A DNA stretch of 64,000 bases, from the NCBI RefSeq assembly GCF_044704955.1, contig NC_091980.1, positions 130,138,001-130,202,000 on the forward strand. Direction: 5' to 3'. The stretch comes from Pristiophorus japonicus (Eukaryota). Numbering within the stretch: position 1 is the stretch's first letter; each line of letters opens with the position of its first letter. Shown one piece after another: positions 1 through 64,000 of this stretch. Below the pieces are notes generated by a model. That model had not been told where the DNA came from. It searched no databases and worked only from the letters and a program-made list of their open reading frames with translations. The position numbers were made by a program, and so were the translations under genes.

Positions 1-3000
1 GCCTGGGCTGTCTGTTTCAAATGGTGTGATTGTCCTTTCCTCAGGTTGTTCTGTCCATCAGGTGTGATGCGAGTTCCACATTGTCGTCTGACCCTCTGGT
101 TCCACAGTGTTGTTGGTAAATCTGATTTTGACTTGGTCTACATGCCTCTGGCAGGTTTTGCCATTGTCCATTTGCACTACCAGTAGATGTTTCCTTCCTT
201 GCCTGTTGCTGACCCTGCAAGCCATTTGGGACCCCTGCCAGAGTTTAGTACAAACACTTTGTTCCCTATCTCATTCCATCTCCCCTATCTCATTCCATCT
301 CCCCCCTCGAATTTCTGTCATGGTACTCAGTCAGCTTAGAGCGCTTTGCCTCAACGATTTCATGCATGTCTGGGAGGATTAATGAGAGCCTTGTTTTTAA
401 AGTCTCTTTGATCAACAGTTGCACGGGGGGGATCCCAGTCAATGAGTGCAGACGAGATCTGTATGCCAGCAGCAGTTGCGACAGGTGACCCTGCAGCGTG
501 CGACTTTGTATTTTAAGCATGCCTTGTTTAATGATTTGCACTGCTCTCTCTGCCTGGCTGTTGGAGGCCGGCTTGATGTGATTTATGCCGTGGTCAATTA
601 TAAAATCTTGGAATTCTGCGCTGGTGAAGCACGGACCATTGTCACTGACCAATATGTCAGGGATTCCGTGCATTGCAAACGTGGTTGAAAGGTTCTCCAG
701 TGGTGGAGGTTGTGCTCGTGTTTAAAATGGTGCATTCGATCCACTTTGAAAATGCATCTACAACTGCGAGGAACATTTTGGCCATTAATAGTCTACGTGC
801 ACCCGCGACCACAGTTTGGTAGGCCAGGGACTCAGGAGACCCTCCCTGGGGGCATTGCTGAGCTGGGCACAAATGGTGCACCTTCGTACGCAGAGCTCCA
901 AGTCGCGTCAACACCAGGCCACCAGATGTGGGATCTGGCTATGGCCTTCATGAGAATGATCCCCAGGTGCTCGCAGTGGAGCTCCCGGACAAATGCCTCT
1001 CCGCCTCACAGAGGCATGTCTACTCGGCTGCACCACATCAGGCAGTCTGCTTGTAGTGATAGCTCATGCATGCACCTGTGAAAGGGTTTTAATTCCTCGG
1101 GGCAGTCATCGCGAGCCAGTCAGCGGTTAGGACACATCTTTTTACGAAGGATAACGTGGGGTCGCTGGCCATCCAGGCTCTGATTTGGCGAACCTGTGGA
1201 CTCAAAGACATTGATTGCCATGACTATCTCTTCGTCCTATTCATCAGACCCTTCTGTGGTCGCCAGGGGTAGCCTGCTGAGCGCGTCGGCACAGTTGTCT
1301 GTGCCTTTATGGTAGTCGTAGGACGCCAACATGAGTGACCACTGTTGAATTCGCACTGGGGCGTTAGCGTTTATTGCCTTGCTCTCGGATAGGAGGGACG
1401 TGAGGGGCTTGTGGTCAGTTTCTAACGCGAACTTGGCTCTGAAAAGGTATTGTTGCATCTTTTTGACACCGTACACGCACGCGAGCGCCTCCTTCTCTAC
1501 CATTCTGTACCCGCGCTCTGCCCGCGAAAGTGACCTGGAGGCATAAGCTATGGGCTGTAATTTTCCCGCGCTATTGACATGTTGCAAAATGCACCCGACC
1601 CCATACGCTGACGCATCGCATGTGAGAACTAGCTTTTTAAATGGATCAAAGATTCAAAACACTGTTGGAACACAAGGTTGTGTGCCTTTATTGATGGCAC
1701 GTTCCTGGTCGTCCCCCCAAAACCAATCACACCCCTTCCTGAGTAGCATGTGGAGAGGCTCCAGCAGCATGCTCAAGTTCTGCATAAAGTTCCCAAAATA
1801 ATTGAGTAGCCCAAGAAAGGTGTGCAGTTCTGGGGCCTGGGTGCCAGACGAATTGCTTCTGTTTTGGACTCTGTTGGGCGGATTCCATCAGCGGCAAACC
1901 TTCTGCCCAAAAATTCAACCTCTGGTGTGAGAAACAGGCACTTTGATTTCTTGACTCGAAGGCCGACCTGATCCAACCACTTTCGTACTTCCTCCAAATT
2001 AGAGATGGGAGTCGGTGTCGCTGCCTGTGATAAGTATGTCATTTTGCTATACAACCGCACCCGGGATGAACTTGAGTAGACTCTCCATGTTGCACTGGAA
2101 TATGGCAGCTGCCGACCTGATGCTGAATGGGCGTCGATTGTACATGAAAAGGCCTCTGTTAGTTGATGGTGAGTAGCTTGGATTCTTTGGTCAATTCTTG
2201 CGTCATATACACAGATGTGAGGTCTAGTTTTGAGAAGTTTACCTGCAGCCAAAGTGGCAAATAAGTCCTCCACGCTGGGCAGCGGGTACTGGTCCTGTAG
2301 GGAGACTCTGTTTATGATAGATTTGTAGTCCCCACAGATTCGTACGGATCCATCAGGCTTCATGACTGGGACGATGGGACTTGCCCAGACGCTAAATTCC
2401 ACAGATGATATAATTCCTTCCTGCAGAAGCCTGCCTAGTTCGTGTTCAATCTTTTCCCTCATCACACAGGGTACAGCTCTGGCCTTGTGATGGACTGGTC
2501 GAGCATCCTGTGATGTAGATTTTGACTTTGGCCCCTTTGAAAGTGCTCACACCTGGCTGAAAGATGTTCAAATCGTTTTATAACTGTTGAGCAGGAGGTC
2601 CGTCCCTCTAATGACATGGCATGGACATCATCCCATTTCCAGCTTAGTTTTGCCAGCCAGCTTCTCCCCAGCAGTGCTGGGGGGTCTCCGGGGACAATCC
2701 ACAGGGGAAGTCTGTTCACTGTCCCTTTGTGTGTGACAGAGCATGGCGCTGCCGAGGACTGGTACGATTTCTTTGGTATAGGTCTTTAGTTTGGTGTCGA
2801 CCCTTGAGTTTTGGTCTGTCTCTTTTATGTGGCCACAGTTGTTGAAATTGTTGAGGGCCCATGAGAGAGTGACTCGCTCCTGTATCCAGCTCCATGTTGA
2901 CGGGTATCCCATTGAGTTGGACCCTCATCATTATAGGAGGCATCCTGTTGTAGGAGCAGCGGCCATTGATCGTGTTGACCCGCTGTACATCGGTGCCCCG

Positions 3001-4202
3001 GGTACTGTCCCCACCGTCTTCTGGTCCGCTTTCTGACCCATCCGATTCATGTACCAGCCGAGCTGTTTTTTTGCACATGTGGGCCAAATGCCCTGTATAT
3101 TCACAGTTCCTGCAAACAGCCTGCTGAAATCGACTCCCCCTTGAGTGCCCACCCCCACACCTCCAGCACAGACTGCTTCCATTGTTCCCAAAGAATGAGC
3201 TGTGTCTGGCTGATCTCTCGAGCTTCTCTCAGTTGGTAGTTAATGCACACATCAACCCACAATGCAAGCAATGACCTTTTCTGTGGCCCTTGATGGCTTC
3301 TGGCACCACTGCCTGCTGTCGAGAGCCTGTTCTCACAGTTTGGTCTGTGGGGTAGCAGCTTGTTTAATGCTGTGAACTTCTTCTTCTGATATTTTGTGAG
3401 TTGTCGTACCTGCATTGTAAATCAACCTTGTTTCTTCTCCCACCAAGAATGTCTGCAACCAGTGCTGCTGCCTCGAAGGTCAAGTTCTTGGTCTCAGAGC
3501 TTTCGGAATATGCCTGCTTGGCCTATTCCTTAATGAGAAAGTCTCAGCATTTCTCTCCTCAGTTCATCGGAGAACTCCCAGACTAGCCAACCTCAAGTTC
3601 TGCCACAAAGTTGGGTATGCTCTGGCCCACAGCGTCTGTAGTTGTAGAACCTGTGTCTGGCCATGTGTAGGCTGCTCACTAACTTCAGGTGGTCTCTTAC
3701 CAGTGTGCTCAATTCTTCAAATGACTTGCTTGCTGGTTTCTCGGGTGCCAGCAGATCCTTCATTAAAGCGTATGTTTTCGAGCCACAGCTGGTTAAGAGA
3801 TGAGCTCTTCTCTTGTCTGCTTTGTCATCTCCCAACCAGTCTTTGGTTACAAAGCATTGCTGGAGCCTTTCTGTAAATTCCTCCCAATTGTCTCCAGCAT
3901 TGTACTTTTCATCTGATCTGTTGTTCGCCATTCTGTAATCCTGTAACTTGTCACCACTGTAAAGTCCTGTCCCCTCAGTACAGACTCTCTCGAGGCATGT
4001 CATGAAGTCCAGGTCACTCTGGACCTGTACCTTTATTTCACAGCTCTAGAATGCTGCACTTGCCTGAGACCTGTTCTAGTATACCTGTCTCTTGCAAGTG
4101 CACCCCTGGTGGTAAGGTATGCTGGTGGTTACAGGTCATATCTTATTATTCATGTATAGCATGTTAGGATACAGTTTTATATATAATGTAAGATACATGA
4201 CA
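1..4202 (-). mobile_element. Degenerate Ty3/Gypsy LTR retrotransposon (5' LTR 3958-4202, PBS-like TGG at 3954-3956, gag from ATG 3931, protease, RT, RNase H, integrase), inside intron 2 of ferritin A1; 3' end lies before the window
   Basis: Minus-strand ORF fragments in Gypsy order: gag (MANNRSDEK...WEEFTERL), protease ELDTGA (2716-3087), RT WASPIVPVMKPDGSVRICGDYK (1773-2465), RNase H EKEALA/ETDHKPL (1237-1587), integrase VSDNGPCF/QAERAV (290-673). LTR has TG...CA ends. Many frameshifts. Confidence 0.93.
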
Positions 4203-4318: not shown

Positions 4319-4914
<596 letters not shown>

Positions 4915-9902: not shown

Positions 9903-12490
<2,588 letters not shown>

Positions 12491-20284: not shown

Positions 20285-20515
20285 AAGTCAGCCAATGATG
20301 TTCATTCTTCAAAGATCTGACTGGCTCTGGGAGTCCATCTCCCTCCTCCCTTTGGTGCTCTGAGAAGATACAACTTCTGATTGGTATTGATGACTGTCAC
20401 TCATCATCAAGAGTGCCACACCCTGGATTATCCCTCAGTATAAATATTTGAGTTTGGTGAACTGTTACTTTTGTACTTCTACAAAGTTTTTACTTTGGAA
20501 AAATAAAATATTAAC
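20285..20515 (+). promoter_or_regulatory. A3 proximal promoter: CCAAT 20292-20296, ATTGG 20380-20384, TATAAA 20439-20444
   Basis: Motifs read directly; TATA is 77 bp upstream of the ATG; conserved with A7 and C5. Confidence 0.7.
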
Positions 20516-24804
<4,289 letters not shown>

Positions 24805-28660: not shown

Positions 28661-31223
28661 ATGGCCTCCCAAGTGTGTCAGAACTACCACAAGGAATGTG
28701 AGGATGCTGTCAACAAGCAGATCAACATGGAGCTATGTTCCTCCTATGTTTACCTCTCCATGGTGAGTCGTGTATTACTTGTTGCTGCATTCTGAAAAGT
28801 TGTTAATTTTCCAGTTCAATGAATTGTCTTTAAGTTGTATTTCTCTGGACTTCCTTCCCTGGGGGAGCAGAGTCTTTGGGCAGTGAGGACTTCAGGTGTG
28901 TAATACAGGGGATCATGTTGACTTCATGGACTGCTCCCTGTAGCAGCTGCCCTCTATTGAGGTTTAATATCTGAAAACAGCTCAGCTGCTGCCTGAGTGT
29001 GACAGAAGAGCACAAACCTGGTCAGGGGCCTGTTGACCTGAAACAATGTTCAGTTTCAGTGGGGGACTGCAGTGAGTGAAATGTGGGCAGGTCCTCACTT
29101 GTGTTCTCATTAATTGGAGGTGATGTACTGAGCATTCTGGTGTTGGAGCCTTGCTCACTGCTGAGATCTCTATTGCACTATTGCTGTGTAAACTACTGGA
29201 GTGGAGGATTTTTCTCATTCTATGTCCAAATTTTGATTAGAATGGAAGAATCATCATTTCTATAATGCCTTTCACTACCTTGGAATATCCAAAGTGCTTT
29301 GTAGCCAATGAAGGAGTTAAGTGTAGTTACCTGTTGTGGGAAATGCAGCAGCCAATTGGTGCACAGAATGCTCCCACAAACTGCAATGAGATAATGATCA
29401 GATCATCTGTTTTACTGGTGTTGGTTGAGGGATAAATATTGGCCAGAACACTGCAGAGAGCTCCCTGCAGTAGTATCTAAAACATGGAGTAGGCTTGAGT
29501 GACCAATGGCTGACTCCTGTCATTCACTAAGATCATTGCTAATCTTGTACCTCAATTCCACCTCCTGCACTTTTCCCACATCCTTTGCTATCCAAAAATT
29601 TATTGCTCTCTCGAATATGCTCAATGACTGGAATTCTCTACCCCAGGAGCTGTGGAGGCTCAAAGAGTCATTAGAGTGAAGAAATTCCTGCTCATCTCAG
29701 TCCTCAATGACTGACCCCTGGTTCTAAACTCTCCAGCAAGGGGAACCATCCTCCCTGCATCCAATCCTTCAAGCCCTGTAAGAATTTTGTACGTTTCTAA
29801 TGACATCACCTCTCCTGCTTTTAAACTCTGGAATAGAGGCTCAGTCTGCTCAATCTCTCCTCCTTGATCTTTCACATCCACCTGATGACTGACACACTCT
29901 CGTGTGAATGTCAGAAAGTAGAGGAGTTATTGCTTATCCAGGAGTAGAATTTGGTTTGACTAGACATGAAATATAATCCTGAACTTTAGTTTATCGGTTC
30001 AACCAGTGAAGAAAAACTTTCATTGTGCTATAGGGAGATGAGGCTCAACTCCGATTGATGAAGTCAATGGCATTTTGCTAGTTTACAAATGGTGTCTATT
30101 TTTTTGAAGGATTAAGAATTCACTAACTAGGGGAAAAATAACTTGCATTTTATATGAAGATCAAGGTCTAAATAGGCTGTCTTAATTTCTCTCTGCAGTC
30201 CTTCTACTTTGATCGGGATGATGTTGCCCTGTGTCACTTTGCTGAGTTCTTCAAGGAGCAGTCACATGAGGAACGTGAGCATGCTGAGAAGCTGATGCAA
30301 TTCCAGAATTGCCGTGGAGGACTGATCATCTTGTCTGACATCAAGGTTTGGTTCAATTATCTAGTGGCCTTCTGTCTGGATACCCTTAGACCTGATTGTT
30401 TCAAATATCTCAAAGCAATTGATTCCATGGTTGTGGTAGTGGAATCCAGTAATTCTATATTCCTGTGACACATTGTTTATGGTAAAATGGACTTCTGGTT
30501 GCTTTTTCATCCTATTTACCTTTGTACTGCATTTTGTATTTTGTTTGTTCCATTGTAAGTGAACTACCTGTGAGTTTCCTCTTCAGAAACCAGAGCAGGA
30601 TGAGTGGAGCAATGGTCTGGATGCAATGCAGAGAGCTCTGCAGATGGAGAAGAATATGAACCAGAGTCTGCTGGATCTGCACAAAATCTCCACTGGGAGC
30701 ACTGACCCTCATGTAAGTTCATGTGGGTTTCTGGGTAACTTGGAGGTGGTGGAACATTGCTATCCTTGAGCTGTTTCAAAAGTGCTCCATGCCCAATAGC
30801 TTTGTTTTTGGGGGGTGGGTGGGTGGGGGGGGGGGTGTTCTCTCTTGGGCTCTTCAGGGAGTGGGGGAAGAGGACCATGAAGTTGGCCTACTGTGGACAT
30901 TGAGAAATAAATGGGTCCCAATATTTCCAGGATCTAAGCTCACATTTGTGCAGGAGTTACTGGATCATTAGAGCAAATGTACATCCATTTCAATTGCCCT
31001 ACCTGATCCTTCTCCATTCCTAGAGAATTAAAATCCTAAATTGAGGGGATGCTCTGATCCTTGATATCTGCTACTGGCCATAACTCATTTCCCTCTTCTC
31101 TTTCAAGTGAAGATGATCAAGAAGCTTGGAGATCACATCACCAACCTGAAGAGCCTGGGAGCCTCTGAGAATGGCCTGGGAGAGTATCTGTTTGACAAGC
31201 ACACTCTGGGGGAGAGTGACTAA
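28661..31223 (+). pseudogene. Ferritin copy B4, probable pseudogene: exons 28661-28762, 30199-30345, 30587-30712; exon 4 has lost its acceptor and first 12 codons (39-bp deletion at ~31104)
   Basis: Reads tttcaagtgaagatg where paralogues read tttcag|ttgtgtgac...gaacaagtgaagatg. Exons 1-3 open; TATAAA at 28585-28590 intact. Confidence 0.88.
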
Positions 31224-37348: not shown

Positions 37349-37590
37349 TCAGCCAATGATGCTCATTCTTCAAAGTTCATGACTGGCTCTGGGAGTCATG
37401 GCCCCTCCTCCCTTTACTTGATTGGTGCTCTGACAGAGGCTGCAACTTGTGATTGGCTGTTGAGGAATGTCACTCACAGCGAGACTGTCCCGCCCTGGAT
37501 TATCCAGCAGTACAAAGGCAGGAGTTGAAATTAGCTAACTCTTAGCTTCATGATTTAACAAGGCTTAGATTTTTGGAAAAGCAAATTAGG

Positions 37591-45500: not shown

Positions 45501-48105
45501 ATGGCTTCCCAAGTGTGTCAGAACTACCACAAGGACTGTGAGGCTGCTGTCAACAAGCAGATCAACATGGAGCTCTGTTCCTCCTATGTTTACCTCTCCA
45601 TGGTGAGTCTTGTATTCCTTGTTGCTGCAATCTGAAAAGTTGTTAACTCTCCAGTTCAATGAACCGTCTTTAAGTTGTTTTTCTCTGGACTTCCTTCCCT
45701 GGGGGAGCAGAGTCTTTGGGTAGTGAGGACTTCAGGTGTGTAATACAGGGGCATCTTGTTGAGTTCATGGACTTCTCACTGGAGCAGCTGCCCTCTTGAA
45801 GTTTAATGTCTGAAACCAGCCCAGCTGCTGCCTGAGTGTGTGACAGAAGAGCACAAACCTGGTCAGGGGCCTGTTGTTCAGTTTCAGTGGGGGGACTTCA
45901 GTGAGTGAAAAATGTGCAGGTCCTCACTAGTGTTCTTATTGGAGGTAAAGTACTGAGAATCCTGGTGTTGGAGCCTTGCTCACTGCTGAGATCTCTGTAA
46001 TAGACTATTACTGTGTAAACTACTGGAGTGGAGGATTTTTCTCATTCCATGCCCAAACTTGGTCTAGAATGGAAGAAGAATAATTTCTATAATGCCTTTC
46101 ACTACCTTGGCTACAAAGCACTTTGGGAGATTCCAATGAAGATGTTAAGTTTTGTTACCTGTTATGTGGGAAATGCAGCAGCCAATTAGTGCAAAGTCGG
46201 CTCCCACATACTGCAATGAGATAATGATTAGATCATCTGTTTTACTGGTGTTGGTTGAGGGATAAATATTGGCCAGGACACTGCAGAGAGCTCTCTGCAG
46301 TAGTATCTAGAACATGGAGTAGGCTTGAGGGGCCAATGGCTTATTCCTGTCATTCAATAAGATCATTGTTGATCTTGGACCTCAACTCCTCCTCTGCACT
46401 GTCCACATATACCTTGGTATCCAAAAATCTATCATGTGCTCTCTCTCTCTCTTGAATATACTCAATAACTGAGCCTCTTCAGCTCCTGGGGTAGAGAATG
46501 CCAAAGAGTCCCACCCTGAGTGAAGAAATTCCTCTTCATCTCTGTCGTCAATGACTGACCCCTGGTTCTAGACTCTCCAGCAAGGGGAACCATCCTCCCC
46601 CATCTAATCCTTCAAGCCCTGTAAGAATTTTGTACGTTTCTAATGAGCTCACCTCTCATCCTTCTAAACTCTAGAATAGAGGTCTCGTCTGCTTAATCTT
46701 TCACATCCACCTGATGACTTACACACTCTTGTGTGAATGACAGAAAGTAGAGGAGGTATTGCTTATCCAGAAGTAGAATTCAGTTTGACTGGACATGAAA
46801 TATATTCCTGAACTTTAGGTTTATAGTTTCAGCCTGCAAAGAAAAACTTTCATCGTGCTTTTGGGAGGTGAGGCTCATCTCCTCCGAATGATGAAGTCAA
46901 TGGCATTTTTGCTAGTTTACAAATGGTGTCTATTTTTGAAGGATGAAGATTTCACTAACTAGGGGAAAAATTACTGCTGCATTGTATATGAAGATCAAGG
47001 TCTAAAGAAACTGTTTTGTTTTAAATTCTCTCCGCAGTCCTTCTAATTTGACCGGGATGATGTTGCCCTGCATCACTTTGCTGAGTTCTTCAAACAGCAG
47101 TCACATGAGGAATGTGAGCATGCTGAGAACCTGATGGAATTCCAGAATCACCGTGGAGGACGGATCATCTTGTCTGACATCAAGGTTTGGTTCAATAAAC
47201 TAGTGGCCTTCTGTCTGGATACACTGAGACCTGATTGTTTCAAATACCTCCGAAAGCAATTGGTTCCATGGTTGTGGTCGTGGAATGCAGTAATTCCATA
47301 TACCTATGACACATTGTTTATGGTAAAATGGACATCTGATTGCTTTTTCACCCCTATTTTCCTTGTACTGTCTCATGTATTTTGTTTGTTCCATTGTAAG
47401 TGAACTGCCAGTGACTTTCCTCTTCAGAAACCAGGGCAGGATGAGTGGAGCAATGGTCTGGAGGTGATGCAAAGAGCTCTGCAGATGGAGAAGAATGTGA
47501 ACCAGAGTCTGCTGGATCTGCACAAAACCTCCACTGGGAGCACTGACCCTCATGTCAATTCTTCATGTGGGTTTCAGGGTAAATTGGAGGTGGTGGAACA
47601 TTGCTGTCCTTCAGCTGTTTCAAAAGATCTCTGTGAACAATAACTTTGTTTTGGGGAGGGTCTCTTCTGGGTTCTTCAGGGGGTGGGGAGAGGACCGGGA
47701 AGTTGGCCTACTGTGGATATTGAGAAATGAATGGGTCCCATTGTTTCCAGGATCTAAACTCACATTGTACAGGAGTTACTGGATCATGAGAGCAGATGTA
47801 CATCAATTTCAATTGCCCTACCTGATCCTTCTCCACTCTGAGAGAATTAAAATCCTAACTCGAGGGAATGCTCTGATGTTCCTTGATATCTGCTATATCT
47901 GGCCATAACTCGTTTCCCTCTTTTCTCTTTCTGTTGTGTGACTTCCTGGAGACCCACTACTTGGATGAACAAGTGAAGATGATCAAGAAGCTTGATGATC
48001 AAGAAGCTTGGTGATCACATCACCAACCTGAAGAGACTAGGAGCCCCTGAGAATGGCCTACGAGAGTACCTGTTTGACAAGCATACGCTGGGGGAGAGTG
48101 ACTAA
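45501..48105 (+). pseudogene. Ferritin copy B6, pseudogene: exons 45501-45602, 47038-47184, 47428-47553, 47934-48105
   Basis: TAC>TAA stop at 47044-47046; exon 4 acceptor CAG>CTG (47931-47933); 16-bp tandem duplication gatgatcaagaagctt in exon 4; weakened donor gtcaat; TATA>TACAAA (45439-45444). Confidence 0.93.
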
Positions 48106-49899: not shown

Positions 49900-52800
49900 T
49901 ATTTAATGTCCATCTCTAATTACCTTTGAGAAGGTGCTAGTCAGCCATATTCTTGAACCGCTGCAGTCTTGTGGTGAAGGTACTCCAACAGTGCTTTTAG
50001 GGAGGGAGTTCCTGGATTTTGCCGCAGTGACGAAAAAGGAATGGTGATATATTTTCAAGTCAGGTTGGTGTTTAAGTGGAGGTGAACTTGCAGTTGATTG
50101 TGTTCCCAAACTTCTGCTGCTCTTGTCCTTCTAATTGCTAGAGCTCGTGGGATGGCTTGTGCTGCTGATAAAGGTTTGGCGAGTTGCTGCAGTGCATCTT
50201 GTCGATGGTATACACTGCAGCCATGGTGCACCGGTGGTGGAAGCAATGAATGTGGAAAGTGGTGGATGGGGTGCCAATCAAGTGGGCTGCTTTGTCCTCG
50301 ATGGTGTCAAGCTTCTTGATGATTGCTGAAGCTGCACTCTTCCAGTCAAGTGGAGAGTATTCCACCACACTCCTGCCTTGTGCCTTGTCGATACTGGAAA
50401 GACTTTCGGGTGTCAGGAGGTGGGACACTCACCGTAAAATACCCAGCCTCTGGCCTGCTCTTATTACCAGAGTATTTATGCGGCTGAGCGAGTTCAGTTG
50501 CTGATCAGCGATGACCCCCAGGGGTTAATGCTGGGGAATTCAGTGGCAGTGAATGTTAAGGGCGGGTGGTTAGACTCTCGCTTTTTGCAGATCGTCATTG
50601 CCTGGCACTTGTGTGGTGCCATTTTTACTCGGCCATTATCAGCTCCACACTGAATGTCATCCAGGTCTTGCTGCATGTGGACAGGGGCTGCTTCATTTTC
50701 TGATGTCTTGCGAATGGAACAGAACACTGTGTAATCATCAGCGAACATTCCCACTTCTGGCCTTTATGATGGAGGGAAGTTCATTGATGAAGCAGCTTAA
50801 GATAGTTGGGCCAAGGACACTGCCCTGAGGTATTCCTGCAGAGATGTGCTGGGGCTGAGATGATTGACCACCAACAACCACTTCCTTTGTGCTAGATATG
50901 AGTCCAGCTCATCGAGAGTTTTCTATATTCGCATTGACTTCACTTTTACAAGGGCTACTTGATGCCGCACTAAATCAGATGCTGCCTTGCTGTGAAAGGC
51001 AGTCACTCTCACCTCACCTTGAATTCAGTTCCTTTGTACATGTTTGGACCAAGGCTGCAATGAGATCAGGAGCCGAGTGGTCCTGGCACAACCCAAACTG
51101 GGCATCAGTGAGCAGATTATTGTCGACAAAATCTTCCCTCACTTTGCTGAAGTTTGAGTGTAGACTGATGGGGCGGTAATTAGCCTGAATGGATTTGTCC
51201 TGCTTTTTCTGGACAGGACGTACCAGGGCAATTTTTCACATTGTTGGGTAGATGCCAGTGTCTCTGTACTGGAACAGCTTGGCTAGAGGTGTGGCCATGA
51301 AGTTACAGATTGTGGTGCAATACAATTCTGCAGTTGCTGATGAAGTACTTTGGTTCGGTATTCACTCAGGAGGACACAAACAACCTTCCGGATATAAAAG
51401 AGGTCAGAGGGTCTAGTAAGGAGGAGGAACTGAGGGAAATCTTTATTGGTCGGGAAATTGTGTTGGGGAAATTGATGGGATTGAAGGCCGATAAATCCCC
51501 AGGGCCTGATGGACTGCATCCCAGAGTACTTAAGGAGGTGGCCTTGGAAATAGCGGATGCATTGACAGTCATTTTCCAACATTCCATTGACTCTGGATCA
51601 GTTCCTATCGAATGGAGGGTAGTCAATGTAACCCCACTTTTTAAAAAAGGAGGGAGAGAGAAAACAGGGAATTATAGACCGGGCAGCCTGACCTCAGTAG
51701 TGGGTAAAATGATGGAATCAATTATTAAGGATGTCAAAGCAGCGCATTTGGAAAATGGTGACATAATAGGTCCAAGTCAGCATGGATTTGTGAAAGGGAA
51801 ATCATGCTTGACAAATCTTCTGAAATTTTTTGAGGATGTTTCCAGTAAAGTGGACAAAGGAGAACCAGTTGATGTGGTATATTTGGACTTTCAGAAGGCT
51901 TTCGACAAGGTCCCACACAAGAGATTAATGTGCAAAGTTAAAGCACATGGGATTGGGGGTAGTGTGCTGACGTGGATTGAGAACTGCTTGTTAGACAGGA
52001 AGCAAAGAGTAGGAGTGAATGCGTACTTTTCAGAATGGCAGGCAGTGACTAGTGAGGTACCGCAAGGTTCTGTGCTGGGGCCCCAGCTGTTTACACTGTA
52101 CATTAATGATTTAGACGAGGGGATTAAATGTAGTATCTCCAAATTTGCGGATGACACTAAGTTGGGTGGCAGTGTGAGCTGCGAGGAGGATGCTATGAGG
52201 CTGCAGAGTGACTTGGATAGGTTAGGTGAGTGGACAAATGCATGGCAAATGAAGTATAATGTGGATAAATGTGAGGTTATCCACTTTGGTGGTAAAAAAA
52301 GAGAGACAGACTATTATCTGAATGGTGACAGATTAGGAAAAGGGAAGGTGCAACGAGACCTAGGTGTCATGGTACATCAGTCATTGAAGGTTGGCATGCA
52401 GGTACAGCATGCGGTTAAGAAAGCAAATGACATGTTGGCCTTCATAGCGAGGGGATTTGAGTACAGGGGCAGGGAGGTGTTGCTACAGTTGTACAGGGCC
52501 TTGGTGAGGCCACACCTGGAGTATTGTGTACAGTTTTGGTCTCCTAACTTGAGGAAGGACATTCTTGCTATTGAGGGAGTGCAGCGAAGATTCACCAGAC
52601 TGATTCCCGGGATGGTGGGACTGACCTATCAAGAAAGACTGGATCAACTGGACTTGTATTCACTGGAGTTCAGAAGAATGAGAGGGGACCTCATAGAAAC
52701 GTTTAAAATTCTAACGGGTTTAGACAGGTTAGATGCAGGAAGAATGATCCCAATGTTGGGGATGTCCAGAACCAGGGGTCACAGTCTCAGGAGAAGGGGT

Positions 52801-54160
52801 AAGCCATTTAGGACCGAGATGAGGAGAAACTTCTTCACCCAGAGAGTGGTGAACCTGTGGAATTCTCTGCCACAGAAAGTAGTTGAGGCCAATTCACTAA
52901 ATATATTCAAAAGGGAGTTAGATGAAGTCCTTACTACTCGGGGGATCAAGGAGTATGGCGAGAAAGCAGGAAGGGGGTACTGAAGTTTCATGTTCAGCCA
53001 TGAACTCATTGAATGGCGGTGCAGGCTAGAAGGGCTGAATGGCCTGCTCCTGCACCTATTTTCTTTGTTTCTATGTTTCTATGACCCACAGTGTCTCATG
53101 GATGCCCAGTTTTGAGCTGCTAGATCTGTTTTGAATCTATTCCATTTAACACTGTGGTCAAGCCACTCACCATGAAGGAGGGTGTCCTCAGTGTGAAGAC
53201 AAGACTTTTTCTCCACAAGGACTGTGTGGTGGTCACTGCTACCAATGCTGTCATGGAGAGATGAATCTGTGACAGGTAGATTTCTGTGGACAAGATCAGT
53301 AGGTTTTTCCCTTGTGTTGATTCTCTCACCATCTGTCGGAAGCCCAATCTGGATGTTATGTCCTTCAGGACTCAGCCCGCTTGCTCAGTGCTGCCGAGCC
53401 CCTCTTGGTAATGGACATTGAAGCCTATTGCTAATATCAGTGCTTCTTCCAAGTGGCCTTCAACATGGAGGAGTACTGATTCATCAGCTGAGGGAGGGCG
53501 GTAGGTGGTAATCAGCAGGAGGTTTCCATGCCCAAGCTTGACCTGAACCCATGAGACTTGATTGGGTCCAGATTAAATGTTCAGGACTCCTACCGCTACT
53601 CCCTCCCGACTGTTTTCCACTGTGTCACCACCTCTGGTGGGTCTGCCCTTCTGGTGGGACAGGACATACACAGGGATGGTGAAGGAGGAATCTGGGACAT
53701 TGGCTGAAAGGTATGATTCTGTGATTATGACTATGTCGGGCTGTTGCTCGACTAACCTGTGGGACCGCTCTCCCCATTTAGGCACAAGATACTAGATGTT
53801 AGTGAGGAGGACTTTGCAGTGTCGACTGGGCTGGGTGTACCATTGTCATGTCAGAAGCCGGTGCCGAGGTCAATGCCGGGTTGTCCATCCTGTTTTATTC
53901 GAATTATTGTTTATCGTAGCGGTTTGTTACAACTGATTGGCTTGCGAGGCCATTTCAGAGGGAAGTTACGACTCAACCACGTTGCTTTGGGTTTGGAGTC
54001 ATATCGGCCAGATTTCCTTCCCTAAGGACATTATTGAAGCAGATGACAATCCGATAGCTCCCTGGGCAACATTACTGATACTAGCTTTTTATTCCAGATT
54101 TTAATTTAATTAACTGAATTTTAATTCCCCAGCTGCCTTGGTGAAACTTTAGATCATTAG
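49900..54160 (-). mobile_element. Third paralogue of the APE/RT LINE, split by a young CR1 insertion
   Basis: ORFs 50138-50428, 50494-50754 (GMFADD) and 53573-53785. Confidence 0.85.
51344..53080 (+). mobile_element. Young 5'-truncated CR1 LINE with uninterrupted RT ORF (to 52983) and (ctatgttt)n-type tail
   Basis: 557-aa ORF 51310-52983 with [37 protein letters not shown] and RGDLIE. ATGA duplicated at 51340-51343 and 53081-53084. Empty sites at ~15662 and ~34442. Confidence 0.95.
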
Positions 54161-57399: not shown

Positions 57400-57652
57400 A
57401 GAAGTCAGCCAATGATGCTCATTCTTCAAAGATCTGATTGGCTCTGGGAGTCCATCTCCCTCCTCACTTTACTTGATTGGTGCTCTGAGAAGATGCAACT
57501 TCTGATTGGGTATTGATGACTGTCACTCATCATCGAGAGTGCCACACCCTGGATTATCCGTCAGTATAAATATAGGAGTTTGATATTAGTGAAATGTTAT
57601 CTTTGTACTTCTACAAAGTTTTTACTTTGGAAAAATAAAATATAATATTAAG
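57400..57652 (+). promoter_or_regulatory. A7 proximal promoter: four CCAAT/ATTGG boxes (57409, 57437, 57476, 57505) and TATAAATA (57565)
   Basis: Motifs read directly; partly conserved in A3 and C5. Confidence 0.72.
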
Positions 57653-60600
57653 ATGGCTTCTCAAGTGCGTCAGAATTACCACCAGGATTGTGAGGATGCT
57701 GTCAACAAGCAGATCAACATGGAGCTCTATTCCTCCTATGTTTATCTCTCTATGGTGAGTTTTGTATTTTTTGCCACTTTACAATGGAGACTATGTAATG
57801 TGAATTTATGAAATCCTGTGCTATACCTAGCCCACCTATTTCTCTCTTTCTGCCCACCTGCCCCAAGCCCTGAATCTATGCAGTGAGTTCACTTTAAAGC
57901 TGTAATATGGTACAATTTATCTTAATTTGTATTTATTAACATTCTCTCTGTTCCTGGCAGCAGCTGTATTTGATTATCTTGATTCTTTTTTCCTGGGATC
58001 TTGAGCTTGATGTAGTTTATTTGGAATACATTCTGCACACAATGCAAGGAATTCAAAATTTGTATCCTCATTCTAAATCACTGCATTGATTTTCCTTACC
58101 TTGCTGGTTCAATGGGTGATGTCATAAAAATAAATCTATGCCATTTCGGAGGGATGTCAGGAAGTATTCTTTTCCCACCAGTGTGGTGGAAATCTGAAAC
58201 GCTTTCTTTCCCAGCCATCCCTCACCTCCACAGGAGGAGGATGGGAAGAAAGTGTTACAAATGTTTCTGCTTCCCTCCTGTTCCGAGTATTTCTTGCCAT
58301 TAATTTTAAGTACCAGTTTGTATCCTTCTGTCTTTCCTCTAACTTTTTGCAATCATTAACTATTTGCTTTATCATCAATTGTCTGTACTCAGTGGACTCT
58401 CCCTTAACCCCTGTGACCTTCACCAAGCACCCTCAAATTCTGAGGGGTTCTCATAACTTTTATTCTGTGGTCTCTGGTTCTCAACAATGCTTTGATTTGT
58501 GTAGACTGTGCCAAATTAATGCTGCTTGTGGTAGTTTGAGTTCCTTGGCATGAATGTAGCCAGTAAAACTTGGTTAGTTTTTTTTCTTTTTTTTTTTATG
58601 ATATGAATTCTGCACTGTGGCTAGATCTAGTTTAGGCAGTTGCTTTTACTGCCTCTCCACTAGCCTATACAAAATGTATTTGGGTTAATAAACAATTATT
58701 ATTGGAGCATGCTTCTGGTGACCAGGGTATAAATCTTGTGGCAATTCCTTCACTAATTTCCAGAGCTACAATGAATATTGGGTGCCAAGATTAAAGTTCC
58801 AGTTTTAAGCATGTTCAATCAAAGCTGAGTTGATGATTATGGAGTGATGCAGCACAGGAGGCCATTCAGTCCATTGTGCCTTGCTGAATGTTGGGTGGAG
58901 CGATACAACTCTGTTTCCATAGCCTACAAATGTTTCTAAATCACGTAAGAGGATGAGACTGGGGAATTTGTAATGGGCAACATAGAGATGGCAGAAAATC
59001 TGAACAAATATCTTGTATCTGTTTTGACAGTAGAGGACAGTAACAACATTCCAATGGTGGATAGTCAAGAGGCTATTGGGGGGAGGTACTTAATGCAATA
59101 ACTATCACCTGAGGAAGTAGAACTCAGTAAGATAATTGGGCTCAATGCAGAGATATGTCCTGATGGCTTGCATCCTAGGGTCTTGAGAAGCAGGGATTGT
59201 GGATGTATTGGTTATAATTTACCAAAATTCCCTGGATTCTGGGGAGGTCCCAGCAGATTGGAAAGCTGCAAATGTAATGCACCTATTTTTTTTTTAAAAG
59301 GAAGAAACTTTTGACCAGTTAGCCTAATAACATCGCAGGGACATTTGGAAAAGCAAAATTTGATCAGGCAGAGTCGGCATGGATTTGTGAGGGGAAGTCG
59401 TGTTTGACAAATTTGCTGGAGTTCTTTGAGGATGTATGGAACAGGGTGGGTAAAGGTAAACCAGTGGCTGTGGTGTATTTGGACCTCCATAAGGTATTTG
59501 ACAAGGTGACACAAAAGATTACTGCACAAGATGAAAGTTCACAGGCTTTGGGGGTAATATATTAGCATGGATAGAGGATTGGCTAAAGAACCGAGTCAGG
59601 ATAAATGGTTCATTCTCTGGTTGGCAACCAGTATCTAGTAGAGTGCCGCAAGGATCAGTGCTGGGACCCCAACTATTTACAATCTATATTACACTCTGTT
59701 CCTCCATCCAAGTTGGTTACGTAGCCTAGTTTGTTCCTCCCAAATTTGCGTCAGTAATGTGTGAGGAGAACACACTTCTGCAAAAGGACATAGGCAGGCT
59801 AAGTGAGTGGGCAAAAATTTGACTGTTGGAAAGTGAGGTCATGCACTTCAGCATAACAAGAATCAAAGAGCAAATGTTTATTGAAGTGGAGCAAGATTGC
59901 AAAGTGCCACAGTACAGCAGGAGCGGAGGAGGGTGGGGTGGGTGCCTCTACTCATTTGGAATTCAGAAGAATGAGGTGAACTTATTGAACTGTATAAGAT
60001 TGAGGGGGCTTGAATTGGTGGATACAGAGAGGATGTTTTCACTGATGGGGAGACTACAACTAGAGGGCATGATCTTAAAATAAGGGGCTTCCCATTTAGA
60101 ACTGAAATATCTTGAGGGTTGTCAATCTGTGGAATTCACTGCCTGAGCTGTGGAAAGCTGAGACATTGAATAAATTTAAGACTGTAATACAGTTTCTTAA
60201 ATGCTAAGGGGTTATGTGGGGATGAGTCCATGATCAGATCAGCCATAATCTTAAATGGTGGAACAGGCTCTGAGCTGTGTGGTCTACTCCTGTTCATATT
60301 TCTCATGTTAGGTTTCCCTATGGCTGGAGCTGAGATTATCCAATGTATTTACCAGGTTAATTGAGTAGGTTCTAGTTTCCATAAATATACATACAAGTTC
60401 AGTGAGACTGAGCCCTTAAAAAAAGTAAGAAAAATGAGTTTGGCTTCATGTACAGTGCCCATGCTGATGAGTCTGCCATGCAATAATCAACTACTCTTCT
60501 GATCCCTCCGCAGTCCTTCTACTTTGACCGGGATGATGTTGCCCTGCGTCACTTTGCTGAGTTCTTCAAGGAGCAGTCACATGAGGAACGTGAGCATGCT

Positions 60601-60660
60601 GAGAAACTGATGGAATTCCAGAATCGGCGTGGAGGCCGAATCATCTTGGCAGACATCAAG
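57653..60660 (+). CDS. Ferritin (H/M-type) copy A7, 5' part: exon 1 57653-57754, exon 2 60514-60660; exons 3-4 expected beyond the window
   Basis: [34 protein letters not shown] / [49 protein letters not shown]; intact splice sites. Confidence 0.93.
58945..60310 (+). mobile_element. Decayed CR1 LINE in A7 intron 1
   Basis: Aligns with 21820-23250. Confidence 0.8.
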
Positions 60661-61132: not shown

Positions 61133-64000
61133 TGTGAAGTCCTGTCCCCTCAGTACAGATTCACATGAGGCATGTAGTGAAGTCAAGGTCACTCTGGACC
61201 TGTACCTTTATTTCACAGCTCTGGAATGCTGCACTTGCCTGAGACCTGTTCTTGTATACCTGTCTCTTGCAAGTGCACCCCTGGTGGTAAGATATGCTCG
61301 TGCTTACAGGTCATATCTTTTATTTATATATACACCACCCTCCCCCAAGGTCTTATTGTCTTTATAGGTTCAGTCTCAGGTGGTCTACGCTCTCGCATGG
61401 AGCATCTGAGTTGTTCAGTTTTTTGCCTTGTTGTCTGTTTTTCTTTGGGTGTGGTTGCTGGTATCTCGACTGAGCTGTCTGTTTCAATTGGTGTGATTGT
61501 TGTTGACTCGCCTGGGCTGTCTGTTGCGATTACCCTTTCCTCAGGTTGTTCCCTCCATCTGTCCATCAGGTGTGATGCGAGTTCCACATTGTAGTCTGCC
61601 CCTCTGGTTCCACAGTGTTGTTGGTAAATCTGATTTTGACTTGGTCTACATGCGTCTGGCAGGTTTTGCCATTGTCCATTTGTACTACCAGTCGCCTGTT
61701 TCCTTCCTTGCCCGTTACTGTCCCTGCAAGCCATTTGGGACCTCTGCCATAGTTTACTACAAACACTTTGTTCCCTATCTCATTCCATCTCCCCCCTCGA
61801 ATTTCTGTCATGGTACTCAGTCAGCTTATGGTGCTTTGCCTCAACGATTTCATGCATGTCTGGGAGGATTAATGAGAGCCTTGTTTTTAAAGTCTTTAAC
61901 ATCAACAGTTGCACGGCGGGATCCCAGTCAATGAGTGCAGACGAGATCTGTATGCCAGCAGCAGTCACGACAGGTGACCCTGCAGCGTGCGACCTTGTAT
62001 TTTAAGCATGCCTTGTTTAATGATTTGCATTGCTCTCTCCACCTGGCTGTTGGAGGCTGGCTTGATGTGATTTATGCCGTGGTCAATTATAAAATCTTGG
62101 AATTCTGTGCTGGTGAAGACGGACCATTGTCACTGACCAATATGTCAGGGATTCCATGCATTGCAAACGTGGTTGCAAGGTTCTCCAGTGGTGGAGGTTG
62201 TGCTCGGGTTTAAAATGGTGCATTCGATCCACTTTGAAAATGCATCTACAACTACGAGGAACATTTTGGCCATGACTGGGCCCGCATAGTCTATGTGCAC
62301 CCATGACCACAGTTTGGTAGGCCAGGGCCCAGGGGCTCAAGACCCTCCCTGGGGGCATTGCTGAGCTAGGCACAAATGGTGCACCTTTGTACGCGGAGCT
62401 CCAAGTCCACGTCAACACCAGGCCACCAGATGTGGGATCTGGCGATGGCCTTTGAGAATGATCCCCGGGTGCTCTCAGTGCAGCTCCCGGACAAATGCCT
62501 CTCCGCCTCGCAGAGGCATGTCTACTTGGCTACCCCACATTAGGCAGTCTGCTTGTAGTGATAGCTCATGCATGCGCCTGTGAAAGGGTTTTAATTCCTC
62601 GGGGCAGTCATCACGAGCCAGTCACTGGTTAGGACACATCTTTTTATGAAGGATAGCGTGGGGTCGCTGGCTGTCCAGGCTCTGATTTGGCGAGCCGTCA
62701 TTGGCGAATCTGTGGACTCAAAGGCATTGATTGCCATGACTATCTTAGTCCTATTCATCAGACCCTTCCGTGGTCACCAGGGTAGCCTGCTGAGCATGTC
62801 GGCAGTTGTCTGCCTTATGGTATATTCGTAGGACACCAACATGAGTGGCCACTGTTGAATTCGCGCTGGGGTGTTAGCGTTTATTGCCTTGCTCTTGGAT
62901 AGGAGGGACGTGAGGGGCTTGTGGTTGGTTTCTAACGCGAACTTGGCTCCGGAAAGGTATTGGTGCATCTTTTTGACACCGTACACGTACGCGAGCGCCT
63001 TCTTTACCATTCTGTACCCGCGCTCCACCCGCGAAAGTGACCTGGAGGCATAAGCTATGGGTTGTAATTTGCCCGCAGTATTCACATGCTGCAAAATGCA
63101 CCCGACCCCATACGCTGACGCATCGCATGTGAGAACCAGTTTTTTAAATGGATCAAAGATTCAAAACACTGTTGGAACACAGAAGGTTATGTGCCTTTAT
63201 TGAAGGCGCGTTCCTGGGCGTCCCCCCAAAACCAATCGCACCCCTTCCTGAGCAGCACATGGAGAGGCTCCAGCAGCATGCTCAAGGTCTGCATAAAGTT
63301 CCCAAAGTAATTGAGTAGCCCAAGAAAGGCGTGCAGTTCTGAGACATTCTGGGGCTTGGGTGCCAGGCGAATTGCTTCTGTTTTGGACTCTGTTGTGCAG
63401 ATTCCGTCAGCGGCAATCCTTCTGCCCAAAAATTCAACCTCTGGTGCGAGAAATAGGCACTTGGATTTCTTGACTCGTATGCCTACCTGATCCAACCGCT
63501 TTCGTACTTCCTCCAAATTATGGAGATGGGAGTCTGTGTCCCTGCCCGTGATAAGTATGTCGTCTTGCAATACAACCGTCCCCGGGATAGACTTGAGTAG
63601 ACTCCATGTTGCACTGGAATATGGCAGCTGCCGACCTGATGCTGAATGGGCGTCGATTGTACATGAAAAGGCCTCTGTTAGTTGATGGTGAGTAGCTTGG
63701 ATTCTTTGGTCAATTCTTGCGTCATCTTTACAGAGGTGAGGTCTAGGTTTGAGAAGTTTACCTCCAGCCAATGTGGCAAATAAGTCCTCCACTCTGGGCA
63801 GCGGGTACTGGTCCTGTAGGGAGACTCTGTTTATGGTAGATTTGTAGTCCCCACAGATTCGTACGGATCCATCAGGCTTCATGACTGGGACGATGGGACT
63901 TGCCCAGACGCTAAATTCCACAGGTGATATAATGCCTTTCTGCAGAAGCCCGTCTAGTTCATGTTCAATCTTTTCCCTCATCACACAGGGTACAGCTCTG
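61133..64000 (-). mobile_element. Degenerate Ty3/Gypsy element (3' LTR 61133-61334, PPT 61335-61346, integrase, RNase H, RT); continues past the window
   Basis: LTR matches 3958-4202; PPT GGGGGAGGGTGG on the minus strand; RT ORF 63187-63984 (LQDDILI, FLGLLNYF); 61510-64000 aligns with 1-2480. Confidence 0.93.

Follow-up and report, generated by a model that had tools for sequence, protein, structure and literature searches.

The question raised by this locus is whether its ferritin genes still carry a working iron-responsive element (IRE) or have been released from IRP control. The window, that is the whole 64-kb stretch of DNA analysed here (G000:C4:130138001-130202000 of a 5.92-Gb genome), contains seven ferritin copies, A1, B2, A3, B4, C5, B6, and A7. 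With the neighbouring stretches included, A1, B2, A3, and A7 have intact frames, and B4, C5, and B6 are broken. The feature that prompted the question is a candidate decayed IRE in front of A7, which was described in an earlier note made from the sequence alone.

All seven copies lie on the plus strand. Exons 1 and 2 of A7 are located at 57653..57754 and 60514..60660, and its exons 3 and 4, which follow a retroelement insertion, fall outside the window at G000:C4:130203829 and 130204259. A3 is complete at 20516..24804, with four exons at 20516, 23439, 24213, and 24646, and B2 spans 9903..12490. Exons 3-4 of A1 are found at 4319..4914 and its exon 1 at G000:C4:130134115. Meanwhile, C5 (37591..40343) has lost the exon-4 acceptor and has one ferroxidase-column Glu changed to Val, B4 (28661..31217) is missing the start and acceptor of exon 4, and B6 (45501..48099) has a stop in exon 2 and a disrupted exon 4. 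A decayed LTR-retroelement with minus-strand pol-like ORFs occupies window positions 1-3900 and 61330-64000, in intron 2 of A1 and A7. A 547-aa frame of a LINE-type reverse transcriptase, the family being judged by eye, was seen at 51340-52983 (+). Changes such as Arg to Cys at CpG codons (QVR/QVC, EER/EEC) are frequent at 9903, 20516, 28661, and 45501 as well as in many other array copies, and may be a sign of germ-line methylation.

The A7 stretch 57601-57632 (+) reads CTTTGTACTTCTACAAAGTTTTTACTTTGGAA, letter by letter as it had been given before. The relic IRE core lies at 57606..57625 (+), 41 nt downstream of the TATAAA at 57565 and ahead of the ATG at 57653, and is trailed by GGAA at 57629-57632 (+). 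It has the loop CAAAGT instead of CAGUGU and a broken upper stem. The match of 14 of 20 positions, previously counted by hand, was reproduced against the intact IRE core of this same genome. The A3 core (locus L065) at 20474..20493 (+) is identical to that of A7, as the earlier note had it, and scores 14/20 with p=0.023. For C5, a gapped reading with a 7-nt insertion had been suggested; we discarded it, since the sister copies L114, L118, and L125 align ungapped. The ungapped C5 core at 37551..37570 (+) gives 12/20, with p=0.14 taken alone, and sister copy L114 gives 15/20. The A1 relic (locus L050) scores 12/20. No relic was found in front of the B-type window copies (ATG at 9903, 28661, and 45501), the leader of B2 being of class B as defined below. 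The Rfam search returned no IRE in the 64-kb window and none at E<=10 at the A7 relic or in 18 other copies, in agreement with the earlier claim that no intact element is left.

The window belongs to a tandem ferritin array, some 40 times larger than the window, which occupies both strands of C4 at ~127.8-133.4 Mb (5.6 Mb). The genome search with PF00210 gave 150 scored matches among 1034 candidates, most of them in this interval. A strict exon-1 pattern had 246 exact matches (reversed control, 0), with at least four outside C4 among the matches listed; a start-codon pattern had 191 matches and an exon-2 pattern 186. At 127.78-129.39 Mb, two exon-1 patterns matched 66 and 51 copies, 42 of them in common. 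The array thus has at least 240 exon-1 copies and probably ~290-300 when the two exon-1 patterns are scaled, a rough figure from patterns that are not independent. Mirror-image blocks on opposite strands with near-identical scores were seen at G000:C4 128.0-128.8 and 129.05-129.8 Mb; these may be large, recent inverted duplications or an assembly duplication.

It should be noted that a bare 14/20 match is not rare. Matches of at least 14/20 to the IRE core occur at 12 positions on both window strands, 10 of which are not this relic, and in 5 of 711 tiles of 90 nt. In the 90-nt 5' region of A7, the relic outscored all 300 dinucleotide shuffles (p=0.003), and the outcome that would have counted against it, a score no better than that of shuffled UTRs, was not obtained. 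For the whole array, 102 distinct exon-1 regions were gathered and 88 of them scored; the IRE genes, H retrocopies, C19 paralogues, four short-flank loci, one leader-insertion copy, and two retro-pieces were dropped from the scoring. Class A (n=71, including C5 and the C11 retrocopy) matched the IRE core at a mean of 13.1/20, nearly always 37-47 nt upstream of the ATG. Values of p<0.05 against dinucleotide shuffles were obtained for 51 of these 71 regions, nearly all in one register, although the copies are related and the counts are not independent. Class B (n=17) had a mean of 11.3/20, with one region at p<0.05. The class-A consensus of 32 non-redundant copies, TGCTTCAACAAAGTTTAGAT, agrees with the intact IRE, TGCTTCAACAGTGTTTGAAC, at 15/20 positions in a fixed register, and L114 has 14 consecutive bases identical to the C19 IRE.

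The genome search with RF00037 returned at least eight matches (82 candidates scored). Intact IREs precede two spliced ferritin genes, at C14:166.754 Mb and C19:93.147 Mb, which by our own reading are an H-type and an M-type gene, respectively. Also matched were a retrocopy derived from the H gene, four copies of the C19 5' leader dispersed in the genome, and L038 (G000:C3:267.22 Mb), an Rfam IRE_I match at 35.1 bits. The dispersed copies (L032-L035, on G000 C10, C12, C17, and C18) cover no more than the initial 70-80 nt of the C19 ferritin mRNA, with the IRE intact, all end at one T-rich/AA point, and share one base that differs from the C19 gene. They look like 5'-leader retro-insertions, which could take the IRE to new places.

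About seven ferritin genes and pseudogenes are clustered at G000:C19:93.05-93.20 Mb (L069, L070, L120, L121, L159-L162, and L177-L181). Among them are the IRE gene, an L-like gene, two array-like genes, and a further one with a GC-rich 5' extension of exon 1 and no ATG at the usual place. No IRE was seen at the L-like gene in the stretch scanned, and a scan of part of the cluster for perfect hairpins found the IRE only at the 93.147-Mb gene. Glycogen-synthase synteny was tried as a marker of FTL and rejected, its copies being 4 Mb away from the C19 cluster and 1.9 Mb away from the H gene and thus not discriminating between these loci.

The alignment with the IRE-bearing ferritin leader of this genome, which had been proposed as a check, was then informative for the origin of the relic. 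From the TATA box to the IRE, the class-A consensus aligned with the C19 gene at a score of 51 against 26.6+/-4.1 (p=0.0005). The TATA-proximal part alone matched at 17/20 (p=0.0004), and p was 0.012 with the TATA box removed too. The A7 leader alone was also significant against the C19 gene (p=0.001). The consensus leader did not align significantly with the H gene (p=0.10), and the whole-leader alignments of the single copies A3 (p=0.12) and C5 (p=0.14) were non-significant. The claim that the array descends from an IRE-bearing gene is therefore supported by a similarity to the C19 gene that holds without the IRE itself. We are highly confident that the array leaders carry a genuine IRE relic; by its colinear position and the significant leader similarity, it qualifies as a descendant of a ferritin IRE.

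According to the accessible text of the SIREs paper (PMC12230718), a functional IRE has a CAGWGH apical loop or one of 22 listed motifs, five upper-stem pairs, and a C bulge. In the 76 class-A relics sampled, loop position 3 is never G and position 4 never U, so that the CAGUG loop is absent throughout; CAAAGT is the loop in 37 of them. The full five-pair upper stem, broken in A7, is possible in only 7/76 copies, while the unpaired C of the 5' strand is retained in A7 and 57/76 copies. Scanning for the SIREs loop motifs, which recovered both control IREs, gave matches in two of the 92 array 5' regions, in each case ahead of the TATA box. The Rfam gathering score of 34 bits was not reached by the array relics tested (window, A7, and 18 other copies). 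A shifted AAGUU loop of the Pfn2 type (SIREs motif 19) was considered and rejected, as no match was found. Genome-wide, CAGTG occurs 12-42 nt upstream of the start in 7 of 191 start-anchored copies, all of class B, and was rejected as an IRE in these leaders because it forms no hairpin; none of the 191 copies has an IRE loop in a hairpin. The statement that no copy has an intact IRE was thus borne out. The relic resembles the IRE_I family (RF00037) in its position near the cap, its 5' arm with a C bulge, and the 15/20 identity of the consensus, but it differs in the CAAAGU loop, the broken upper stem, the missing lower stem, and a decaying sequence below any Rfam threshold.

Since the loop state is common to all class-A copies, we infer a single break of the IRE loop before the class-A expansion. 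Class-B copies appear to have lost the element altogether. From the definition of a functional IRE, it is predicted that the array is very probably free of IRP control. Loop and bulge mutations in humans derepress L-ferritin, according to the accessible parts of PMC8196845 and PMC11719527. The FTL IRE mutations of human HHCS (PMC8196845, as far as accessible) are similar in that loop damage uncouples ferritin from IRP, but they are disease alleles of one gene, as against a few hundred array copies here.

The A7 promoter (57409..57570, +) contains four CCAAT/ATTGG boxes (57409, 57437, 57476, and 57505) and the TATAAA. Retrocopies allowed the position of the relic within the transcript to be estimated. 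L075 (G000:C11:6.52 Mb) is a partly spliced retrocopy in which exons 1-2 are joined, intron 1 is removed, and intron 2 is kept; homology reaches back to 52 nt upstream of its ATG, a point 12 nt before the relic and equivalent to ~57594 in A7. The A7 5' UTR would therefore cover 57594..57652 (+), ~59 nt, starting 29 nt past the TATA box, with the relic ~12 nt from the cap. The L075 relic is still able to form all five upper-stem pairs. In L072 (C3), a processed copy with all four exons joined, the 5' end lies inside the relic. Together with four further array-type pieces with exon joints (C1, C4:112 Mb, C6, and C16), at least six spliced retrocopies are present; L072 and L075 show the relic to be part of the mRNA, as far as can be read from such copies. 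An upstream non-coding exon carrying an intact IRE, which would undermine the claimed loss, was looked for as well: no upstream exon is present in L072 and L075, both colinear with the leader, and no perfect IRE-like hairpin was found on the sense strand upstream of the window genes, so that such an exon is disfavoured. A retrocopy can be inherited only if its source gene is transcribed in the germ line or the early embryo. The inherited spliced copies of array type thus point to array transcription there, and not to the ovary specifically.

In 23 copies, the p-distance was 0.26 for the relic, 0.30 and 0.31 for its flanks, 0.12 for the 150 nt before the TATA box, 0.07 for exon 1, and 0.18-0.41 for intron 1. 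According to these values, constraint acts on the promoter but is not detectable on the relic; the relic appears to be decaying without detectable function. Within the promoter, conservation is highest in a block at 57413-57432 and equivalent positions (p-distance 0.05-0.08), which comes after the first CCAAT box and has the consensus TGATGCTCATTCTTCAAAG.

The array genes have the PF00210 domain in a four-exon structure. Ten of 21 four-exon C4 models passed the intactness test and one more, ending one codon early, is also intact; with a split-exon-2 copy as the 22nd, 11/22 copies are intact, in a sample biased to well-kept copies. Their proteins are 175-177 aa long, have no N-terminal extension, and match the cytosolic H and M genes over 175 codons without a gap. 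The residues E24, Y31, E58, E59, H62, E104, E137, and Q138, which we take to be the ferroxidase residues, are as in the H and M genes of this genome in 9/10 intact copies, the tenth having K137. This upholds the earlier claim that ferroxidase-type residues are kept, and the product is predicted to be a cytosolic ferroxidase-type (H/M) ferritin. Position 141, presumably adjoining the ferroxidase site, is Met in 18/18 full-length C4 models, Ser in the H gene, and Ala in the C19 IRE gene. The dN/dS ratio among the 10 intact copies is 0.24. Third positions of exon 1 diverge like first and second ones (0.074 vs 0.065), which fits gene conversion or codon constraint.

In the coding tree (24 rows, four indel rows being excluded and frameshifted rows retained), the array falls into one clade with two C19 paralogues (100/99), and this clade groups weakly (89/67) with a third C19 paralogue and not with the IRE gene. 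The array dS is 1.6 to the C19 IRE gene and 0.41-0.54 to the nearest C19 paralogues. The tree and dS values indicate an old array lineage with a probable origin in the C19 cluster; as the array and the C19 IRE gene are not united by the coding tree, it is only the leader that points to the parent. The 15/20 identity of the relic despite a dS of 1.6 suggests that the IRE was functional for much of the history of this lineage.

Large shark ferritin arrays are already known. As far as the accessible text of the reports goes, Sahm et al. 2024 (10.1101/2024.09.09.611499) counted 155 FTL-like and 179 FTH1-like copies in the Greenland shark, in clusters syntenic with the white shark, the largest of which, spanning 4 Mb, is ovary-specific. 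Yang et al. 2026 (PMC13214024) reported 59 FTH1b copies in the same species and higher copy numbers in sharks than in rays or chimaeras, found some copies expressed in fin and blood, and put forward a ferroptosis hypothesis. By these partial descriptions, the published FTH1b clusters resemble the present array as multi-megabase arrays of four-exon genes with full and broken copies mixed, the expansion being general among sharks. They differ in copy number, with 59 copies (Yang) or 104+118 in one 4-Mb cluster (Sahm) against a minimum of 240 exon-1 copies over 5.6 Mb here. The main text of Yang et al. contains 'IRE' and 'iron-responsive' 0 times, 'iron-responsive' also occurs 0 times in five supplements, and 'iron' occurs 0 times in the main text of Sahm et al., in the versions accessible. 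A 2025 Greenland shark preprint has 0 occurrences of ferritin. In a literature search with subscription journals largely outside its coverage, no paper on IRE loss in shark ferritins was found, and a shared IRE loss before the expansion seems to be unreported.

Ferritins uncoupled from IRP are known in mammals as FTMT and Fthl17, which are intronless retrogenes without an IRE, whereas introns and a recognisable relic are still present in the array. A functional likeness is offered by the snail yolk ferritin of Biomphalaria and Lymnaea, which lacks an IRE (PMC10799875, accessible part): it is egg-directed, as proposed for the array, and exists beside an IRE-type soma ferritin. According to the same source, the snail protein is secreted, has a signal peptide and a 42-aa insertion, and is made from one gene in the digestive gland. 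The array proteins have neither signal peptide nor insertion and would be raised by copy number, so that the array may work like yolk ferritin without being a member of that type. The accessible text of PMC1488847 describes ferritin mRNA as abundant in vertebrate ovaries. Tandem ferritin amplification in fish is also represented by fthl27 of the hadal snailfish, which has 14 copies and broad expression; 'iron-responsive' occurs 0 times in the accessible text (PMC10746142).

The best reading of the whole is, with moderate confidence, that the array encodes a maternal ferritin which is amplified by gene dosage, controlled at the level of transcription, and no longer subject to IRP repression. 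The ancestor would have been a ferritin with a cap-proximal IRE, related to the C19:93.147 Mb gene, in which, judging by the alignment, the loop changed from CAGUGU to CAAAGU and the 3' arm was altered. The IRE-dead gene would then have been tandemly amplified to a few hundred C4 copies, an order suggested by the shared class-A loop state, and class B would have been left without the element entirely. As no IRP site is present, the array mRNAs would be translated at any iron level, and output would be set by the conserved CCAAT/TATA promoter and gene dosage. Normal IRE control would remain with the H gene on C14 and the IRE gene on C19. Most likely, the ovary or oocyte would produce a ferroxidase-type ferritin in large amounts, to serve a large, yolk-rich egg as a maternal iron store and as an antioxidant. 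Such an ovary or oocyte role, taken over from another shark, appears reasonably likely. Among the roles named in the earlier note, germline or ovary is favoured by the retrocopies found here and by the ovary-specific shark cluster, as far as the latter is described (10.1101/2024.09.09.611499).

Other explanations were weighed against this reading. The IRE loss may be real and the array a somatic stress, immune, or anti-ferroptosis ferritin, transcriptionally induced in many tissues. The fin and blood expression and the proposed ferroptosis link (PMC13214024) speak for it, as do the link of snailfish fthl27 (14 copies) to reactive-oxygen tolerance (PMC10746142) and a conserved promoter that could contain inducible elements. 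However, the largest Greenland shark cluster is ovary-specific (10.1101/2024.09.09.611499), retrocopies here arose in the germ line, and the expansion is also seen in sharks without long life (PMC13214024, 10.1101/2024.09.09.611499), so far as the accessible parts of these sources tell. We regard a somatic role as unlikely. It is less likely still that the array is birth-and-death debris, in which the IRE decayed since most copies are silent or redundant and gene conversion keeps the coding identity. Half of the modelled copies (11/22) are indeed broken, exon-1 third positions are conserved like the others, and the mirror-image blocks suggest a recent segmental or assembly duplication. Against this stand the dN/dS of 0.24, promoter blocks at 0.05-0.08 next to a leader at 0.3, the spliced retrocopies, and a single shared loop change in place of independent decay.

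The two remaining explanations concern the relic itself. It is very doubtful that it was recruited anew, as a weak or non-canonical IRP site, a site of another RNA-binding protein, or a SOX/TCF-type DNA site (WWCAAAG, arising from the mutated loop). The 15/20 identity does persist though synonymous divergence from the IRE gene is close to saturation, WWCAAAG is present in 31/76 copies, and 7/76 can form the full upper stem; but late IRE loss accounts for the retained identity, the relic diverges almost like its flanks, the leaders have no SIREs motif, and class B manages without a relic. A SOX/TCF site is unsupported, with 45/76 copies lacking WWCAAAG and no extra conservation. Finally, a chance likeness in an AT-rich leader, to which the 10 other 14/20 places in the window and the lack of an Rfam match might point, is largely refuted already by the fixed register and TATA spacing, by a consensus nearer to the IRE than most copies are, and by the colinear promoter; we consider it highly improbable.

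Among the RNA elements of vertebrates, the ferritin IRE ranks with the best conserved, and human disease can result from a single change in its loop. A few hundred ferritin genes of this genome share one fixed IRE break, yet keep the enzyme and the promoter, and such regulation is not discussed in the accessible text of the published shark array reports (Yang et al. 2026, Sahm et al. 2024). The loss of iron feedback would explain why ferritin copy number could matter at all. Returning to the maternal ferritin, we propose tentatively, at somewhat less than even confidence, that one loop break removed iron feedback and made amplification to hundreds of copies worthwhile as a means of loading eggs with ferritin, turning an IRP-repressed somatic ferritin into an oocyte-type battery. 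If this is true, vertebrates would have arrived through gene dosage at a counterpart of snail yolk ferritin, and the published longevity and ferroptosis reading of the shark ferritin expansion would be recast as maternal provisioning.
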